Positions 2,276 through 9,704 of a stretch of 40,451 bases of DNA are shown here, piece by piece; position 1 is the stretch's first letter, and each line of letters starts with the position of its first letter. Source of the stretch: Cognaticolwellia sp. (GTDB lineage Bacteria; Myxococcota_A; UBA796; CAJQPC01); contig JBLHMA010000003.1 in the NCBI GenBank assembly GCA_047621545.1, forward strand, positions 1 through 40,451, given 5' to 3'. Both the position numbers and the translations under genes were made by a program. The notes below the pieces were generated by a model, which saw only the letters and a program-made list of their open reading frames with translations, was not told the DNA's origin and searched no databases.

Positions 2276-3307
2276 GTGAGCCAACCGGCAAGCCGACTGG
2301 CGCGACGAATCGAGCAGGAACGCAGCGTTGGACAAGCGCGTCGCGACCTGTCCTTCGACGCGGATCAGCACTACATCGAGGCCGCTCTGCGCGGTCGCAC
2401 TGCCCGTCGGGTTCGCGCCCACCTGCGCCGCCTGGAGCCGGTCGTCATCATGACGCCGCGCTGGTCCAACCCCCAGACTTTTCTGGAGGAAATCGCCTTG
2501 GATCTGGCGGTCGGCGAGCCGGCTGTTGGTTGCCGCACGGTCTCCTTCCGTCCTCTGAAGGGCCGCCGCGCGCCCGAGGCCTGGAGCTTCATTCTTTCGG
2601 TTCTGGGCCAGCTGCGTAGCCGCCGGAGTCAGGGCAACAGTCCGGTCATCGTCGCAGACGGACGTGGATTCCGCTCCGCCGCGCTCGACAGCCTGCTCCG
2701 CGCACAGGACGAGACCGACCACAACCTGGCTCTGCTGGGTCACGGCGCTGAGTACCTTCCCATCGAGGTCATTGAGGATCTGGGCGAGGTTTGGGCTACC
2801 TACGTACAGCGCATCCCCCGTGGACGCCGCACCACTATGTTGCTCGCCGGGAGTGTGGATGCCCGCATGGCCTTGGAGACCGGTCACAAGGTCCAGCTGG
2901 CTGACTATGGTGAGGCCGAGGCTGCTGCAGCCATCATCGGCCGCGTGGGGCCGGCTTCTCGGGTTCATCTGGAGACTGCCGCACGCTTCTCCGGTGGCAT
3001 TCCCGCCGTTGTCGAGGCCCTTGGACGTGGCGCCCAGTCACAGGGCTCCATGCCCCGTAGCCGTGCTGGCCTGGTCCGCACCTTGGGTCCCTTGGGCGAA
3101 GAGATGCGCATGGCGGTCGACATCGTAAAGGCCGACTCCGACTTGGCTGAGCGACTGCAGCAGCTCTTGCGCGGTGAGCCCCTGATCGAGGTACCCCAGG
3201 TCGACAAACCTTTGATGCTCGCTGGACTCCTTCGGCGCGTGCGTTTGCCTGGTGAGAACCGCGTCATGTTGAGAGCTCCAGCCATTGGCGAGGTCGGCGG
3301 AAGCTGA
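2276..3307 (+). CDS. Hypothetical protein, probable catalytically inactive STAND-like P-loop NTPase
   Basis: 343-aa ORF, GTG start after GGAGG. Degenerate Walker A (VVIMTPRWSNPQTFL), degenerate Walker B (LALLGHGAEYL) and a GxP motif (SGGIP). Confidence 0.5.
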   Translation: MSQPASRLARRIEQERSVGQARRDLSFDADQHYIEAALRGRTARRVRAHLRRLEPVVIMTPRWSNPQTFLEEIALDLAVGEPAVGCRTVSFRPLKGRRAPEAWSFILSVLGQLRSRRSQGNSPVIVADGRGFRSAALDSLLRAQDETDHNLALLGHGAEYLPIEVIEDLGEVWATYVQRIPRGRRTTMLLAGSVDARMALETGHKVQLADYGEAEAAAAIIGRVGPASRVHLETAARFSGGIPAVVEALGRGAQSQGSMPRSRAGLVRTLGPLGEEMRMAVDIVKADSDLAERLQQLLRGEPLIEVPQVDKPLMLAGLLRRVRLPGENRVMLRAPAIGEVGGS

Positions 3308-3349
3308 GGAGCGGTGTTCTGTAGAGGGGGCTGATGGTCCCAGAGCACA

Positions 3350-3380
3350 AACGGCGCCCAAAGGGCGCCGTTGCTTGTTT
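3350..3380. terminator. Likely bidirectional intrinsic terminator
   Basis: AACGGCGCCC-AAA-GGGCGCCGTT hairpin with a T-rich flank, between convergent genes. Confidence 0.75.
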
Positions 3381-3394
3381 TCAGGTCGGAGAGC

Positions 3395-3871
3395 TCAGCC
3401 CTTCCCGCCCTGAACCTCGATGGTGCCTTCGTTCCCGTCGTAATCCTTGATGACGAAGCGGAAGCGCCAGTCGGTCGCGGACGAGCAGGTCAGTCCGTAG
3501 GATGCGCCCGGAAAGCTTCCCGTACAGGTTCCGCCCTCGGGGTCGCAGGCAACTACACCAGCTTGGTCCACCATGTTGCCGTCGCGCAGCCACTCGATGT
3601 GGTGCTGGTCGTCAACGTCTTCCTCGCTGAACAGATTGCGTGGGACATCCTCGGTCCCTTGCGGGTCATCAAACTTCACTTGGAAGTTCCAGAGGTCCAC
3701 GGTGCCTTCCCCATCAGGGTGCTCCAAGCACAGGGCGCTGGGATCGCTGAGGGTTGGGGACTGTCCGTCGTCCACAACCTCTTCACCCGTGTCGCTGTCT
3801 ACGACCTCGTCGTCGCCCTTGCAGGCGGTCAAGGACAGGGCTCCAAGCAGAATGCAGAGGTGAATGCGCAT
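3395..3871 (-). CDS. Acidic, Cys-containing lipoprotein of unknown function
   Basis: ATG at 3871 after GGAGA. Signal peptide MRIHLCILLGALSLTA-C with lipobox. Confidence 0.75.
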   Translation of the reverse strand: MRIHLCILLGALSLTACKGDDEVVDSDTGEEVVDDGQSPTLSDPSALCLEHPDGEGTVDLWNFQVKFDDPQGTEDVPRNLFSEEDVDDQHHIEWLRDGNMVDQAGVVACDPEGGTCTGSFPGASYGLTCSSATDWRFRFVIKDYDGNEGTIEVQGGKG

Positions 3872-3959
3872 TGCGTCTCCTAATTCGGAGTGCAGCTTAC
3901 CCCATCTTGAGGCAGGGGAGAAGGCATGGCTTGGCGTTGCAAGTCGATAGCCCCCGCAG

Positions 3960-3991
3960 TGTATATTCAAATGTACATATGTAAATATACA
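3960..3991. promoter_or_regulatory. AT-rich palindromic site, candidate enhancer for a sigma-54 activator
   Basis: Inverted repeat TGTATATT (3960-67) / AATATACA (3984-91) enclosing the palindrome TACATATGTA (3974-83), about 170-200 bp upstream of the predicted +1 at 4159. Confidence 0.4.
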
Positions 3992-4131
3992 TGCACACTA
4001 TGTTGTCAATAAGTAAAAACAGGGACTTAAGATAGTAGTCCGCCAATAATCAGCTGGTATTGTGGACAGAGTACCAAAACTGAGTTCCCAGCTATACACT
4101 TCTAAGTGGCTGAAATCAGGTAGTTCAAAAG

Positions 4132-4148
4132 TTGGCACGGTCAATGCA
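4132..4148 (+). promoter_or_regulatory. Sigma-54 (-24/-12) promoter
   Basis: TTGGCACGGTCAATGCA versus consensus YTGGCACGRNNNTTGCW (one mismatch), with exact GG-N10-GC spacing. IHF-like AATCAGgtagTTC at 4114-4126. Confidence 0.75.
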
Positions 4149-4158
4149 TATGTATTCT

Positions 4159-5670
4159 CCGACACCCGGTTCGCTGGGGTCGGCCGAGAGAAACGCTCGA
4201 ATACGTTCTTTGACGTTGACATTGCTGATTGTAGACGACCTGCTGCACTGCTCCTGCCGGAGCGACCGAGAAATCGGATGTGCAGCGCTTCTGTACGCCC
4301 TCACTTGATGGGGTAGCGGAACAGAGGGACAGGGCGCTTGGGATACCTGGTAATCACCGGGAAGAACGAGGAGCCAGTCGAGCGGAGCGCAGAACCAATT
4401 CGTTGGGAAAGCAAGCTGGCTTAGGACCACCCCTCGGGGCGGAAACCACGGCGCAATCAGTGTCCAAAAGCCCATGGAAGAATCGATCTGAAGGTACCTG
4501 GAAACGGGCGCTGGAGGAAACGGACTCTCCCAGAGGAGTAAAAGCCCTGAAGCTGAGGCGCAGTTCTTTCGAGAATTGCGAGCGTTGACCGTCCGCGGTC
4601 AGCGGAAAAAACAGCAAGAGGGAACGGTAGCTGCGGAGACGTGGTTGCAGCTTCTGGAGAGGGAAAGTCTTTGAAGGGTCATGCGCTACGAGGAGCACTC
4701 CCACACCGTTTTCGGACGGACTAAGAGCGAGCAAAACGGAAGCGAACCTTATGACCGGCAGCAGGATGCAACAAGCCTGCAGCTCAGATGCGGAGAAAAG
4801 CGTCGAGGAGCAGAGAAAGCTCAGGACGTACCAAGTTCACTCTGGCAAGAGTTGAAACAACAGCATGAAGAGACTTTGCGATGGCATTTATTTGCTGGAG
4901 CAGAGGATGAGCGAGTGGAGACACAAGCTCGGGGAACTGATGGCGACGAGGCCAGAAGCTCATTCAACCCAAAGCATGCTGGAGAGGACGCATCGCGAAG
5001 CAAGAGCAATCTTGAGTCGCAGAGAGTCGATGAATTGGATTCAGAGAACAAGGTGGCTGCGCAGCTTGCAAGAGTTGAGGCGCACCCTGGAGAAGAATCA
5101 CAGAATTCGGCACTGACGAGTATGTCGGTGGAGAGGCGGAAAAGCCCTGGAGAGAAGGAGACGGCGAAGCAGCCCGGCAGGTGAGGCTTCATAGAGAAAT
5201 TGAGACGGACAGCGGACTGCTTGCAGCCCGATGAAACCGAGCAAGGACTTGCTGGCTCAGGTACGAGAAGGAGTCTCTGAAGGAGGCGCCAAAGGACAAT
5301 AGGCGGCATCGTCGCAAGACGAAGCAGGCAGTGTGTGAGAAACCTTGAAGGTCCCATCGAAACAGCACGCTCAAACGGCGGAGCCGGTGAAGGCCAAGAA
5401 GGGACGCGAGAAAGGCCAACGACTCGCAGCACACGGTCAGTCAATCAGCAGCAATGTTGGTTTGCCACCTGAAGGTTCAGGCAACCCCACGAGAGGCGAG
5501 CAGAGGCAACTCTGAGAGCTTTAAGTACCCGAATTCTCTGACAGGAACTCCCACGGGCTGGGTGTCACCCTCCATTCCCTTGCGGGGGAAGACGAGGAAC
5601 TCTACAGATGCGAAAGCGAATGTAGAAAAAGAAGAGCCCCGAAGCCGGAAACGGCCTCGGGGCTTTTCTG
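4159..5670 (+). ncRNA. Candidate ~1.5-kb highly structured non-coding RNA of unrecognised family
   Basis: No credible ORF. Sigma-54 promoter at the 5' end and terminator at the 3' end. Many tetraloop hairpins (UUCG, UCCG, UGCG, GAAA, GCAA), G-U pairs consistent with the + strand, and long-range pairing 4216-4246 with 5426-5460. Confidence 0.62.
5631..5670 (+). terminator. Intrinsic terminator closing the candidate RNA
   Basis: GAAGAGCCCCGA-A-GCCG-GAAA-CGGC-C-TCGGGGCTTTTC hairpin ending in TTTTCT, with an A-run upstream. Confidence 0.7.
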
Positions 5671-5705
5671 CGTCTGCAGTTTTTGCTTGGCGGATCGGTT
5701 CCGGT

Positions 5706-5804
5706 GGGACAGTCAAGCCGCGCTGGGGACAGTCAAGCCGCGCTGGGGACAGTCAAGCCGCGCTGGGGACAGTCAAGCCGCGCTGGGGACAGTCAAGCCG
5801 CGCT
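5706..5804. repeat. 20-bp tandem repeat GGGACAGTCAAGCCGCGCTG x5
   Basis: Units at 5706, 5726, 5746, 5766 and 5786 (last one lacks the final base). Confidence 0.95.
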
Positions 5805-6010
5805 ACGACAGTCGAGGCAAGCTCGGTACGGCAGTCGATTCAAGCCCCATACGGCAATCGAGGCAAGCTCGCTGCACAAGCCCGGTGCGGCAGTCGGGTC
5901 AAGCCCGATACGGCAGTCGGGTCAAGCCCGATACGGCTGTCGGGTCAAGCCCGATACGGCAGTCGGGTCAAGCCCGATACGGCTGTCGATCCAAGGCCGC
6001 TGTGGCAGTC
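5805..6010. repeat. 23-bp tandem repeat CGGCWGTCGGGTCAAGCCCGATA, 4 near-perfect copies plus degenerate flanks
   Basis: Units at 5888, 5911, 5934 and 5957, each with an internal TCGGG-TCAAG-CCCGA hairpin. Degenerate copies on both sides. Confidence 0.9.
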
Positions 6011-6122
6011 AAGTCTCGCTGCGTTAGTCGAAGCCAAGATCTCCAAGCCAGCGCAGCTGGACGAGTCGGGCGGCAAGGCGAAGGCCTTGCATAGATGCCG
6101 CAGCTAAATGCGAAGCACCAAG

Positions 6123-6257
6123 GGCCGCTCAGCTCAAGAGGCCGCTCAGCTCAAGAGGCCGCTCAGCTCAAGAGGCCGCTCAGCTCAAGAGGCCGCTCAG
6201 CTCAAGAGGCCGCTCAGCTCAAGAGGCCGCTCAGCTCACGAAGGCCGGTCAGCTCAC
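6123..6257. repeat. 17-bp tandem repeat GGCCGCTCAGCTCAAGA x~7-8
   Basis: Units at 6123, 6140, 6157, 6174, 6191, 6208 and 6225, plus a variant at 6243 overlapping the E1 stop codon. Confidence 0.95.
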
Positions 6258-8417
6258 AAAGAAGCGGGGTGGGACCCAGCTCCAGGACTTGGTGCTGCCA
6301 GCGACCTTGATCTTCATGACCTGCCCCGCGGCTGCGACGATGTCGTCCTTGGTCAGGACCGTCGCAGCCTCCAGCTTGAGGGACTGAGCGATGCCTGGGA
6401 TGTTCTTCTGGCCCAGCGCCAGGCTCGGCAGTCCGGGGAAGCGCTCTACGAGCTGGCCCTGGATGCTGCGCACGAAACCAGCAAATGAGCGGTCCTCGGC
6501 AGCGACCAGCAAGCGGCCGGTCTTCTCGACGCTCTCGGTGATCAGGTCTAGATCTGGCGGGACCAAGGTGCGCAGGTCGATGACCTCGACCGAGAGACCC
6601 TGCTTCTCCAGCTCTTCGGCAGCAGCGATGCTGGTCCACACGGCGCGACCCCAGCTGACCAGAGTTACGTCCTGTCCTTCCTTCCGAATCACACCCTTCC
6701 CGAAGGGAACTCTGACGTTGCGGGGCAGGTCGGGGATCTCGCCACGCATGATGCGCTTCTTGAGCTTGGTGATGCCGTCGGTGTCCGTTGGCTCGCCGGG
6801 AAAGGCGGGGCCCAGGGTCTGGCGGTACATCCACTTGGGCTCGAGCATGATGACGGGCCCGTCATACTCGGATGCGGCCATGATCAGGCCGTAGACATCC
6901 CAGGAGGTGCTCGGCATGGCGATGACCAAACCAGGGATGGGCGTGAAGTAGCCGTCCAGGGACATGGAGTGGTAGACCGCGCCGCCGCCAAAGGGGTCCG
7001 TGGGCATGCGCAGGATCATGCGGCAGGTGCTGTTGCCGTTGCTGGTCCAGTACAGGTTGCCCAGGTGAACCAACCAGTGGAAGGCGTTCAGGCTGTAGTC
7101 GCCGAACTGAATCTCAGGCAGGGCGTGTACCCCTTCGTGCAGGCCGGCGCCCATGCTGCAGCCCACAATGAGGGGCTCATTCAGGGGCGCGTCGGTGACC
7201 CGGTCTGGGTACTTGTTCTTCAGGCCGGCGGTGGCCTGCATCACGCCGCCCAGCTTGCCGACGTCCTGACCCAGGATCATGCCGCCCTTGGTCTCCAGGA
7301 TGTGGTCCAGAGCGGAGCGGATTGCGCCGCCGTAGCTGACGTTGGTGGTGCCAGGCTGGGCAGCGGGCTCCTGAACATCTGGAAATGGTGCGTAGATGTT
7401 CTCCATGACGGAGTCATCGGGGGGATCCGGCTCAGCGCGCACTTCGTCGAAGATGGCCTTGACCTCCTCGTCTTGGCGACCCATCACGTTGCCCAGCTCA
7501 TGATGGGCAAAGAAGTCGCGGCCCTGGCCTTCGACGCGGCGCATGATGTCCTGCTCTTCGAGCACGCCGCGCTTCACAAGCTCGGCGCCGAAGCTGATCA
7601 GGGGGTCGTCTTGGCCCAGGTCGAAGGTCATGTCGGCGGCGGAGCTGTGGCCGTTGAAGCGGGGCAGGTTGACCACGTGCATGAACGCAGGCTTCTGCTG
7701 CTCCCGTACGTACTTGGCGCAGGCCAAGGTGGTCTCGTATGTGTCGAAGAAGTCGCTGCCGTCGCAGGTGAAGAACTTCACCCCGAATCCTTCTGCGTAC
7801 TTCTCGAAGCTCTTGATTCCGCGACCCTCTTCGGGGGTCGTGGAGATGGCCACTTCGTTGTCGGTGATCATCACGATCGTTGGGAGCTGCCAGACGCTGA
7901 TGGCGTTCATCGTGTCGTGCAGGTCGCCCTCCGCCGAGGTGCCGTCGCCGATGATACCCAGGGACATGCAGTCCTTGCGTCCCTGGCTGCGGTTGCCCAA
8001 TGCCCAGCCTGCGGCCTTGCCCAGCTGCATGCCCACGGGGGACTGCACGGGCAGGATGCCGTAGTCGCGGATGTCCAGGTGGTAGACCATCTGGCGACCG
8101 CGGGACATGGGGTCTGTGTCCTTGGAGAACTGCTGGCGCAGCATGTTCCGAGTGAAATCCTTGTTGCCGTGCAGGGTCAGCCACATGCTCACCAGGGCGC
8201 CTGATCGGTAGTGAGGAACCACGGCGAACTGATCGAGCTTGGCGACCTTGGAGATCGCCAGGGCGGTGGCAGTGCCGTGCACTTCCTCGCCTGGACCCCA
8301 GATGGCGAACTTGACCTCGCCCCGGCTGGCCAATCGCACGATGTGCTCTTCGGTAGAACGGGATCGAACTCCGATCTCATAGGCCAGGCGCAGATCGTCA
8401 GCGGTCAGCTCGGACAT
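6249..8417 (-). CDS. 2-oxoacid (probably branched-chain) dehydrogenase E1, fused alpha+beta subunits
   Basis: ThDP-binding GDGTSAEGD...N motif, GHSSAD-like loop, beta-subunit motifs GQDVG, DAPLNE, EIQFGDY and EVIDLRTLVP. Confidence 0.9.
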   Translation of the reverse strand: MSELTADDLRLAYEIGVRSRSTEEHIVRLASRGEVKFAIWGPGEEVHGTATALAISKVAKLDQFAVVPHYRSGALVSMWLTLHGNKDFTRNMLRQQFSKDTDPMSRGRQMVYHLDIRDYGILPVQSPVGMQLGKAAGWALGNRSQGRKDCMSLGIIGDGTSAEGDLHDTMNAISVWQLPTIVMITDNEVAISTTPEEGRGIKSFEKYAEGFGVKFFTCDGSDFFDTYETTLACAKYVREQQKPAFMHVVNLPRFNGHSSAADMTFDLGQDDPLISFGAELVKRGVLEEQDIMRRVEGQGRDFFAHHELGNVMGRQDEEVKAIFDEVRAEPDPPDDSVMENIYAPFPDVQEPAAQPGTTNVSYGGAIRSALDHILETKGGMILGQDVGKLGGVMQATAGLKNKYPDRVTDAPLNEPLIVGCSMGAGLHEGVHALPEIQFGDYSLNAFHWLVHLGNLYWTSNGNSTCRMILRMPTDPFGGGAVYHSMSLDGYFTPIPGLVIAMPSTSWDVYGLIMAASEYDGPVIMLEPKWMYRQTLGPAFPGEPTDTDGITKLKKRIMRGEIPDLPRNVRVPFGKGVIRKEGQDVTLVSWGRAVWTSIAAAEELEKQGLSVEVIDLRTLVPPDLDLITESVEKTGRLLVAAEDRSFAGFVRSIQGQLVERFPGLPSLALGQKNIPGIAQSLKLEAATVLTKDDIVAAAGQVMKIKVAGSTKSWSWVPPRFFVS

Positions 8418-8474
8418 CGGTCCTCCAACAAAGGAAACATCGGGACGCCCACCTAACGCGGCGCGCGATGGGGT

Positions 8475-9704
8475 TCAGATGACCATGGCCTCGGCGGAGC
8501 CAAAGTCGCGGTCGATCTTGAACGGGGCCAGGTCTGCTTTTTCCCCCAAGACACTGACATGGTCGATGGATTCCCCTGCTTCGGCCAGTGCAAGTCCCAC
8601 CTGCGCGGAGAAGGGACCGAACATGGCGCCGTGGCCGGAGAAGCCCACCATTCGGATCAGATTCTGGGTCTTTGGGTCAAAGTCCATGAAGGGATTGTGG
8701 TCCGGGGTGGTGCCGTAGAAGCCCGCTGTGGTGGCGGAGATCCCAGCGAACTCACCGACTGGCGGCAGGGCCTGGGCTAGGGCCATCCAGGTCTCGAATG
8801 GACGAGAGTCGGCGTCGTTCTTGTGGAAGTAGGCAGGCTCAATGCTGTCCTGATCTTCGTATACGAAATCGGCGCTCACATCGGGGGCGTGGTGCTTCCA
8901 GCCGGTCATCAGAGAGCCGGCGTTCTCAGGGCGGCAGTAGGCGCCTGAGGGGGAGATGATCAGCGGCATGTTGAGCAGGGTCTCGGAGCTCATGGACTCG
9001 CCGCGCTCGATAAACCAGAGGTAGCGCTTGAGAGCCTGGACGGGCAAGTGGTCGGCGCCCAGGATGTCTCCTACACGGCGACTCCAGGCGTTTGTGCAGT
9101 CCAGGAAGACGTCGGCCTTGAGGACAACGCCCTTGCCGGTTGTGACGCTGACCAAGCGCTCTCCAACCCGCTCGGACTGGACCAAGGGGCTGCCCTGGAG
9201 CAGGGTGCCACCCAGAGCGCGAAAGGCGGCGGCGGCTTCGCCATAGACCACGTCCGGTCGAAGAAATCCGTCGCTTGGACACCAGGTGGCGCCGGCGATC
9301 TCCTCGGGGTCGACGTAGGAGAAGCGCTCCACGGTCTGTTGGGGGCTGAGCGCTTGGACCTCGGCAAGTCCCCAGCTCTGCTGGTCTTTGACGCGCTTTT
9401 GGGCAGCTCTCCAGGCCGCTTCGCCTTGAACCAAGAAGAGGTAGCCGTTCTGCTCGATGGGCTGGCCGTCTTGGCCCATGCTCTGGTGCCAGTGCTTGTA
9501 AAAATCTACTGAATAGCGCATGCCAAGCACGCTCTCGCGGGTGGAGAACTGCTGGCGAATGCCGGCGGCGGTGCGGGAGCTGGATCCAGCGCCGATGTGC
9601 TGGGCCTCGATCAGGGTCACCTTCCAGCCTGCCCGCAGCAGCGCACAGCCCGTCAGGGTGCCTGTGATGCCGCCTCCGATCACGACTGCGCTGCGATCCG
9701 CCAT
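8475..9704 (-). CDS. FAD-dependent oxidoreductase, DAO / sarcosine oxidase beta family
   Basis: VIGGGITG, GSSSRTAAGIRQQFS, TPDHNP and GFSGHG motifs. Confidence 0.85.
   Translation of the reverse strand: MADRSAVVIGGGITGTLTGCALLRAGWKVTLIEAQHIGAGSSSRTAAGIRQQFSTRESVLGMRYSVDFYKHWHQSMGQDGQPIEQNGYLFLVQGEAAWRAAQKRVKDQQSWGLAEVQALSPQQTVERFSYVDPEEIAGATWCPSDGFLRPDVVYGEAAAAFRALGGTLLQGSPLVQSERVGERLVSVTTGKGVVLKADVFLDCTNAWSRRVGDILGADHLPVQALKRYLWFIERGESMSSETLLNMPLIISPSGAYCRPENAGSLMTGWKHHAPDVSADFVYEDQDSIEPAYFHKNDADSRPFETWMALAQALPPVGEFAGISATTAGFYGTTPDHNPFMDFDPKTQNLIRMVGFSGHGAMFGPFSAQVGLALAEAGESIDHVSVLGEKADLAPFKIDRDFGSAEAMVI

Follow-up and report, generated by a model that had tools for sequence, protein, structure and literature searches.

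Genomic context of the RNA gene

A 2.4-kb gap between two minus-strand genes holds a 1.5-kb stretch of distinctive composition in the window analyzed here, which is a 40,451-base piece of contig JBLHMA010000003.1 (assembly GCA_047621545.1, Myxococcota_A). We conclude that positions ~4160-5670 of its plus strand almost certainly represent a real structured non-coding RNA (ncRNA) of a new family. The features of this RNA gene and of its surroundings are listed in Table 1. The GC content is 0.51-0.58 over 4001-5600 versus 0.62-0.70 in the flanks when calculated in 400-nt windows, with an AT skew of +0.31 to +0.37 and a GC skew of +0.11 to +0.25 over the same range, and the plus strand of the RNA stretch consists of 60.6% purines. 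The lower GC and the A/G skew described in an earlier sequence-only reading of this DNA were thus found again. Sequence conservation within the genus sets in at ~4125 and ends at ~5690, in good agreement with the limits of 4159 and 5670 that had been proposed. A sigma-54 promoter and a terminator had been taken as the boundaries of the gene, and both were borne out by a unique promoter match at 4133-4148 and a covarying terminator hairpin of 19 bp. The promoter, the RNA ends and the function were predicted computationally throughout this study.

Seven pairs of the terminator hairpin are changed on both sides among five same-genus copies, and other members of the family carry equivalent terminator hairpins with U runs. 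A consensus terminator scan listed the hairpin at 5628-5670 only on the minus strand because just four U follow it on the plus strand. The RNA gene is present as a single copy in the genome of the window, which is 75% complete. The locus is syntenic within the genus, where genome G003 has the same lipoprotein-like gene upstream.

Table 1. Features of the RNA gene and its flanks, with positions in the window.
Feature	Position	Strand	Remarks
Lipoprotein-like frame	starts ~3872	-	upstream flank gene of the RNA
AT-rich upstream region with inverted repeats	3940-4132	+	GC 0.49-0.51; last ~10 nt conserved in genus
Sigma-54 promoter TGGCACGGTCAATGCA	4133-4148	+	-24 TGGCAC (GG 4134-4135), -12 TGCA (GC 4146-4147)
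RNA gene	4160-5670	+	predicted start ~4158-4161, end at terminator; ~1,450-1,510 nt; from conservation bounds and RNA contigs (4161-5605)
Closing helix, 5' strand	4161-4173	+	pairs with 5554-5566; 13 bp in genus consensus fold
UCUUUGACGU word of 5' domain	4207-4216	+	UCUUUGA and next G invariant
Conserved core domain	4725-4833	+	109 nt; scores 112 bits with covariance model R1
Core long-range helix, 5' strand	4747-4760	+	pairs with 5123-5136; 12 bp in genus consensus fold
Core stem A	4761-4765/4776-4780	+	closes loop AUGCAACAAG
Core stem C	4800-4804/4825-4829	+	encloses stem B
Core stem B	4808-4811/4819-4822	+	loop AGAGAAA
Conserved word GAGUGGA	4913-4919	+	23/28 members, 1/28 on reverse strand; usually 150-235 nt after core start
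Core long-range helix, 3' strand	5123-5136	+	inside block CGGUGGAGAGGCG, ~370 nt downstream of core
Second GAAGGCCA	5389-5396	+	nearby single-stranded word
Hairpin GCGAG/CUCGC with conserved loop AAAGGCCAACGA	5406-5427	+	5-bp stem; 2 pairs doubly changed in genus
Conserved 3' block CUCUGACAGGAAC...CACGGG, then closing-helix 3' strand (5554-5566)	5536-5566	+	from 25-member alignment
Terminator hairpin, GAAA loop, then short U run	5628-5672	+	arms 5628-5647/5652-5670
E1-dehydrogenase/transketolase-type gene, 722 aa	6249-8417	-	downstream flank gene of the RNA

Coding potential

The longest stop-to-stop frames in the RNA stretch encode 169 aa (plus strand, 4675-5184) and 207 aa (minus strand, 4821-5444), and neither is conserved. 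Two same-genus genomes with 91% and 89% identity over the RNA stretch were compared with the window. Their 124 and 147 substitutions (271 in total) display no 3-base periodicity (p = 0.46 and 0.58), and the 13 indel events are without exception 1 or 2 nt long. The earlier statement that no credible open reading frame is present therefore held. A coding explanation (protein gene, decayed pseudogene or small-peptide mRNA) can be dismissed with near certainty: despite the purine-rich strand, a 167-aa ATG frame at 4681-5184 and an AUG-containing word, AACCCCAUGAAGG, that is kept in the 5' domain of many members, the frame has no Pfam match and is broken by 1-nt indels of relatives at ~4853 and ~5021, the AUG word is missing from the window's own copy, the next conserved word 3' of that AUG (CGGACAGAC) occurs in differing frames among members, and conservation tracks base pairing rather than codons.

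Presence as RNA

A total of 19 metatranscriptome runs from nine studies of marine water and marine sediment hold 23-51% of the 31-mers of the stretch, and one DNA run, which may derive from the source sample, holds 86% of them. Contigs were aligned to positions 2500-8500 for four RNA runs of four studies, and the other 15 runs are counted only as holders of shared words. The contigs of the four runs fall on 4161-5605 at 90-100% identity, with no joints reported. One contig of 1,437 nt fits 4172-5605 over 1,433 nt, a 691-nt contig starts at 4161, and two more, of 577 and 569 nt, map within the stretch. In these four runs the flank bins 2500-4107 and 5716-8500 are uncovered save for a stray piece of 33 nt, and this lack of cover was not counted as evidence. 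A quarter to half of the words is found even in runs of only 19-62 million letters; the small run size and the contig depth hint at a high, though unmeasured, abundance of the RNA.

Loose contig ends were also observed at 4741-4782, where other contigs (depths 4-43) share only the core of the RNA and then differ. Since these contigs have the core in common and diverge beyond it, several members of the family are present as RNA in the same samples.

Conserved secondary structure

The consensus fold of a five-sequence genus alignment comprises 468 pairs, 130 of them with double changes, and the full secondary structure rests on these five related sequences. Most of the capped stems drawn in the sequence-only reading were recovered in this fold, namely the three-way junction at 4241-4287 and the stems at 4559-4580 (UUCG), 4584-4603, 5309-5322 (GCAA), 5501-5514 (GCAA), 5575-5590 and 5603-5622. 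Two others came out differently: a stem had been placed at 4706-4719, whereas the consensus fold pairs 4706-4714 with 4732-4739, and a hairpin proposed at 4159-4183 competes with the better-supported helix 4161-4173/5554-5566, which joins the two ends of the RNA. Many variable hairpins of the RNA are capped by UUCG and GNRA loops.

The closing helix takes up the first 9-13 nt of the transcript, and its strands covary across families as GACACCCGG/CUGGGUGUC, GACGCCGGGG/UCCCGGCGUC, GGCGGCGGGAGAG/CUUUCUCGUCGCC and GACAUCCGGGC/GCUCGGAUGUC. In an alignment-free test on 18 distinct members, among which three with poorly anchored tails were kept, the cognate runs have a mean length of 9.2 bp versus 6.6 bp for non-cognate ones (Mann-Whitney p = 1.7e-6). 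Note that p-values of this kind are overstated, because the members are related and not independent. The local 5' hairpin at 4159-4183 was subjected to the same comparison in 22 members and rejected for lack of a cognate signal (5.0 versus 5.0 bp, p = 0.38). It is probably replaced by the closing helix, which uses the same 5' nucleotides, and the two may be alternatives, for example during transcription.

A second long-range helix connects the core with the CGGUGGAGAGGCG block, which is located 140-280 nt downstream of the core loop in other members. It covaries as AUCGG/CCGAU, GUCGG/CCGAC, GUCGU/ACGAC, ACUGG/CAGU, and CCUC/GAGG versus CCCC/GGGG. At least 4 bp can be formed in 16 of 22 cognate pairs versus 39% of non-cognate ones (p = 7e-5); this alignment-free test was anchored on the GGAG(G/A)GG block in 22 distinct pairs, and rows without the anchor within 100-300 nt of the loop, including the window's own copy, were left out.

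The 5' domain and the 3' half contain further conserved elements. Columns T84-A90 and G92 are invariant among 32 aligned 5' domains, and TCTTTGA was found in 21 of 28 members versus 0 of 28 reverse complements. About ten conserved blocks lie between the core and the terminator in a 25-member alignment of the 3' half. One of them is the block of the hairpin at 5406-5427, whose stem reads GCAGG/CCUGC and GUGGC/GCCAC in other families. The loop words CUUCG, UUCGG and GCAAC are over-represented 2.3-3.3 times, and the purine content is 53-63% in all 25 full-length members. The word GAAGG occurs 7.2 times per RNA, is 2-fold enriched and is about half paired in the genus fold.

At 4487-4520, CUGAAGG stands opposite CUGGAGG in an internal loop of 3x3 purines with U-G and G-U as closing pairs. 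Both UGAAG and UGGAG show ~2-fold enrichment in the family. The GAA/GGA 3x3 loop as a repeated protein site was dropped, as the letters at 4487-4520 are not kept in two G002 copies.

Single-sequence folding energies fell only modestly below those of shuffled sequences on the plus strand (z = -0.16 to -4.36). The signal is weak over the central part of the RNA (z = -0.2 to -1.7), and z is ~0 for the minus strand and for the flanking genes. It is therefore covariation, and not energy, that proves the structure. The plus strand is assigned because G-U pairs are kept in the covarying helices, and the promoter and the 5' domain are conserved on the same strand; the assignment made from the sequence alone was correct in this respect. 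According to these comparisons the RNA folds as one closed multi-domain unit, in which a 5'-3' helix joins the ends and a central junction at 4725-4833 is clamped by the second long-range helix.

Core domain

The central junction is strongly conserved. In the alignment of 40 matches to model R1, 12 of the 14 core pairs are changed on both sides and 98.1% of the cells are standard pairs. Controls with slid partners gave 32-48% pairing, and the observed values were reached by none of 500 shuffles. The pair closing the 8-nt core loop UGCAAYAN alternates between A-G, G-A and Watson-Crick. The inner G-G of the GAG/GAG internal loop swaps to A-A, which is a non-canonical covariation.

Some members, including L033:1751-1876(-), L046:1712-1793(-) and L120:1344-1473(-), have a weak second match to the core model (13.6-27 bits) that precedes the main core by ~100-150 nt. 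The word GAAC(C/A)CCAUG recurs in the 5' domain, in the middle and in the core, and a related AACCCCA.GAGAGG is found downstream. The repetition of core-like matches and words in these sequences suggests an internal duplication of a module.

Promoter and regulation

The promoter TGGCACGGTCAATGCA is the sole match to TGGCAC-N5-WTGCW in the 40,451-base window, in which 0.13 matches are expected by chance; at least one match was seen in 12 of 100 shuffles of the window. The predicted RNA start is ~12 nt 3' of this promoter, and the first base covered by an RNA contig is 4161. Of 54 non-redundant units, 33 have the motif upstream of the core, and 12 of the 21 units without it had less than 1 kb of upstream sequence. 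Its distance to the core is 420-951 nt in 25 full-length members and ~1,320-1,430 nt in two members of another genus. From these distances, full-length members measure ~1.1-1.6 kb, and two look ~2 kb long. The distance from the promoter to the invariant UCUUUGACGU is fixed at ~77-80 nt in most members, and a few have an inserted hairpin between them. The invariance of the GGCAC and TGC letters is circular, because the regular expression selects them, whereas the fixed distance is not, as the UCUUUGACGU word is independent of the promoter pattern.

The genome possesses an rpoN gene and 17 or more genes for strong activator ATPases. Three other families have members in which the 18-bp palindrome TGGGAA-N6-TTCCCA occurs once or twice, ~90 and ~190 nt upstream. 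Only ten perfect sites of this type exist genome-wide in five genomes of other families, and eight of them are located upstream of RNA copies, one of which is cut by a contig end. The remaining two comprise one site inside a gene and one intergenic site. This near-exclusive placement suggests a dedicated enhancer-binding activator in those families, and the distribution of the palindromes makes the RNA look like the private target of a sigma-54 activator. The intergenic palindrome at L107 (G115:C106:6567-6584) has neither an RNA copy nor a sigma-54 motif nearby, and could be another target of the same activator.

The region upstream of the window's own promoter contains nested inverted repeats at 3940-4060, with TGTATATT...AATATACA around ATGTACAT, which are unlike the TGGGAA-N6-TTCCCA sites elsewhere. 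The whole inverted-repeat region at 3940-4132 is a candidate site of this genus and may bind an activator or a bending protein (IHF).

Distribution of the family

A BLAST comparison with 61 relatives revealed full-length copies within the genus, two of them in one genome, and islands of similarity in more distant genera, of which the best is 4725-4833. Covariance model R1 of the core matches 76 of 151 genomes of the order, including the genome of the window (G000), with one to three copies each, and 32 of the 61 high-quality genomes of the order. Some copies are arranged in tandem, 1.6-3.6 kb apart. In a phylum-wide sample, 23 of 151 genomes match the core, and 12 of 131 do so outside the order, other classes included. 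Eight of these far loci have a core with the same three helices, compensating changes and the loop GGAUGAAACAAGCC, and at least two of the eight possess TGGCAC-N5-CTGCA ~500-600 nt upstream. The homolog search in Myxococcota proposed at the outset thus yielded a family with compensatory changes across the order and beyond it.

An exact-pattern scan of the genomes of 185,579 species returned 46 loci. A total of 39 were confirmed by the model, all of them in metagenome bins, and the seven unconfirmed loci come from unrelated phyla and correspond approximately to the chance expectation. All carriers known by name are metagenome bins. In the order sample, the carriers G070 and G098 are almost complete assemblies made up of 1-2 contigs. 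Most of the confirmed loci are labelled Myxococcota, Deltaproteobacteria or Proteobacteria, and the others bear chiefly Enterobacteria-type labels. Third-party bins labelled 'uncultured Enterobacteriaceae', 'Klebsiella' or 'Enterobacterales' carry the RNA at L051, L055, L066, L069, L081, L085 and L095. These Enterobacteria-type organism labels look wrong for a GC-rich RNA of Myxococcota type.

No protein family recurs beside the RNA in 34 loci of up to 8 kb, where the largest cluster consists of four closely related loci; a conserved neighbour and an adjacent activator gene were both looked for among these loci and rejected. The core pattern has no match in 2.9 million viral contigs; the same pattern caught 22 of 37 known members. 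A mobile or phage element was rejected in view of the single genome copy, the synteny in the genus and this empty viral scan.

Comparison with known RNAs

None of the 4,227 models of Rfam 15 matches anywhere in the window at gathering thresholds, including those for OLE, GOLLD, ROOL, raiA, HEARO, group I and II introns, RNase P, transfer-messenger RNA (tmRNA), 6S, SRP, CsrB/Rsm, Qrr and GlmY/Z. A permissive search of 3900-6300 with E up to 10 gave only three matches, with E = 2-9.5 and 13-17 bits, all to eukaryotic models of small nucleolar or long non-coding RNAs. Nothing usable was therefore found even at this level, which fits the initial impression that the RNA belongs to no known family. 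ARAGORN predicted no transfer RNA (tRNA) or tmRNA in the window. Full-text searches of openly accessible articles gave no description of such an RNA. A group II intron is rejected by the lack of a match to any Rfam intron model, the lack of a long frame, and the flanks, which are two separate genes on the opposite strand.

OLE is ~600 nt long, ROOL ~580 nt and GOLLD ~800 nt, and the RNA described here has about twice the length of OLE, GOLLD, ROOL and raiA. It can be regarded as a new RNA class because it has no match in Rfam 15, no description of it was found in the literature, and OLE, ROOL and GOLLD are much shorter. Like OLE, it is a large, highly structured and well-conserved bacterial ncRNA with its own transcription unit, and the biochemical function of OLE is likewise unresolved. 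It differs from OLE in being more than two times longer, in its occurrence in Myxococcota and not in Bacillota, in its sigma-54 promoter and in having no Rfam match. OLE sits next to oapA, whereas no conserved adjacent gene was found for the window RNA in the 34 loci.

GOLLD and ROOL are also giant ornate RNAs that emerged from comparative genomics, and they share with our RNA the capped hairpins, the long-range helices and the lack of a known protein partner. Both are often linked to prophages and often found next to tRNAs. The window RNA, in contrast, is longer, has no Rfam match, no match in viral contigs and no tRNA in the window, and is flanked by ordinary metabolic genes (E1 dehydrogenase and FAD oxidoreductase).

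Similarities in gene organization were found with Qrr/LuxO, GlmY-GlmZ/GlrR and Pxr of Myxococcus, which also involve stand-alone RNA genes with sigma-54 promoters and paralogous copies, and which may share with the RNA copies of three other families the activator-type palindromes almost exclusive to the RNA genes. The Qrr, GlmY/Z and Pxr RNAs are ~100-200 nt long and act by Hfq-assisted base pairing or by mimicry of a sibling RNA. The window RNA is ~10 times larger with a conserved complex fold, does not match their Rfam models and lacks an adjacent activator gene.

CsrB/RsmZ resembles the window RNA in being purine-rich, non-coding and multi-copy with a recurring G/A-rich word (GAAGG), but the words of the latter are partly paired, its size and long-range architecture are unlike those of CsrB/RsmZ, and CsrA was not found in many of its carriers. 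PF02599 is present in none of the four genomes of the genus (completeness 75-95%) and in none of the 46 genomes of family f3, 30 of which carry the RNA; in the order as a whole, CsrA was found in 45 of 151 genomes. A sponge of CsrA type is therefore rejected, and with it this form of the protein-sponge option raised in the sequence-only reading. The view that the locus is an independently transcribed large structured RNA stood, with the promoter, the terminator, the covariation and the contigs of four studies all in its favour.

Possible function

The best explanation of the whole, to which we assign a probability of roughly 60%, is a stand-alone ncRNA gene of sigma-54 type, ~1.45-1.5 kb in length, whose product has a closed fold and acts in trans, and which is controlled by a dedicated activator. 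By analogy with LuxO-Qrr and GlrR-GlmY/GlmZ, where the RNA is the sole output of a signalling pathway, the RNA would be switched on by sigma-54 and the dedicated activator and serve as the main, if not the sole, output of one such pathway. The size and the conserved shape suggest that the RNA acts through its fold, and it would do so in trans, through its folded shape and not by coding or simple antisense pairing. The most likely role would be that of a platform which binds or sequesters one or more proteins. This signal-induced mechanism of scaffold or decoy is put forward tentatively, with the odds somewhat against it.

Several observations weigh against this explanation or parts of it. Nine of the 54 units have at least 1,174 nt of upstream sequence but no promoter match. 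There is no activator gene on this contig, and the TGGGAA-N6-TTCCCA palindrome was not found upstream of the window's own copy. The core alignment was fitted to the covariance model and leans towards structure for this reason. The contigs show neither the strand, nor the exact ends, nor the level of the RNA, and since they end at 5532-5605, short of the terminator, the 3' end is uncertain and may be either the terminator or a processed end. The low enrichment of GAAGG, about half of which is paired, falls short of establishing a repeated single-stranded binding motif. No partner protein, ligand or target was identified. In addition, the conserved architecture exceeds what decoy RNAs need, and would fit a ribozyme or a self-assembling RNA equally.

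A bolder and rather doubtful proposal is that the RNA founds the largest class of structured ncRNAs in bacteria apart from ribosomal RNA (rRNA). It would then be an RNA machine under sigma-54/activator control, widespread in marine Myxococcota, with a core junction that has its own biochemical task, such as catalysis, binding of a ligand or metal, or self-assembly, rather than protein titration.

An assembly made of RNA only, in which the molecule folds by itself and multimerises into a particle as cryo-electron microscopy showed for OLE, ROOL and GOLLD, is unlikely but deserves attention as the strongest competitor. The fold is large, ornate and closed, no conserved protein gene lies beside the RNA, and the self-complementary GGCC words at 5389-5396 and 5410-5421 could form loop-loop contacts. 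GOLLD, ROOL and OLE are described as forming homo-oligomers in the abstract of PMC12286853. However, the GGCC words never vary, so that covariation cannot tell whether a contact within or between molecules is made. Regulatory RNAs are the more usual targets of such tight control by a dedicated activator, and the empty scan of viral contigs does not agree with the frequent prophage linkage of ROOL and GOLLD.

A large ribozyme that processes itself or acts on another substrate is improbable. Its size and its architecture of long-range helices would be comparable with those of large ribozymes, and near-invariant unpaired nucleotides occur in the central junction in the AUG(C/A)AACAAG loop, the GAG/GAG internal loop and the NGAGAAA loop. 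The Rfam search nevertheless found no ribozyme match even with E up to 10, the contigs display no joints or internal ends and one of them is uncut over 1,433 nt, and nothing in the data offers a clue to a substrate.

Still less probable by a good margin is cleavage of the transcript, as a precursor, into several small regulatory RNAs. Many stable capped hairpins lie between one promoter and one terminator, and the contigs of the smallest run (X2) are short (124-375 nt), but such short contigs are expected from low coverage in a run of 62 million letters, other runs yielded contigs of 1,437, 691 and 577 nt, and the helix joining the ends together with the covarying long-range helices argues for one folded unit.

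Large intricate bacterial RNAs without a known job are rare, and OLE, GOLLD, ROOL and raiA each opened new biology or a new RNA architecture. The present RNA is found in half of the sampled genomes of an uncultured order and extends into further classes of its phylum. For experiments it offers a defined promoter and activator site as well as a conserved 109-nt core open to mutation, and the RNA is a target for cryo-electron microscopy as well as a new marker for a poorly known marine group. The finding also shows that genes as large as that of 16S rRNA can lie hidden in the intergenic "gaps" of Myxococcota metagenome bins.

Neighbouring genes and repeats

Three short tandem-repeat arrays are located at 5706-6256, between the terminator of the RNA and the end of the E1 gene, made up of a perfect 20-bp unit (x 4.9), a 23/46-bp unit (x ~5) and a 17-bp unit (x 8.1). 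The 20-mer is found nowhere else in the genome. The arrays are missing from relatives, with nothing but a 28-bp x 2.2 repeat in G003 and no repeat in G001. Since the arrays are genome-unique and not conserved in relatives, they were rejected as a part of the RNA.

The 722-aa protein encoded downstream is composed of an E1 dehydrogenase alpha-type domain, a transketolase pyrimidine-binding domain and a transketolase C-terminal domain, and represents a fused alpha/beta E1. A gene for an FAD-dependent oxidoreductase is located beyond it at 8475-9704.

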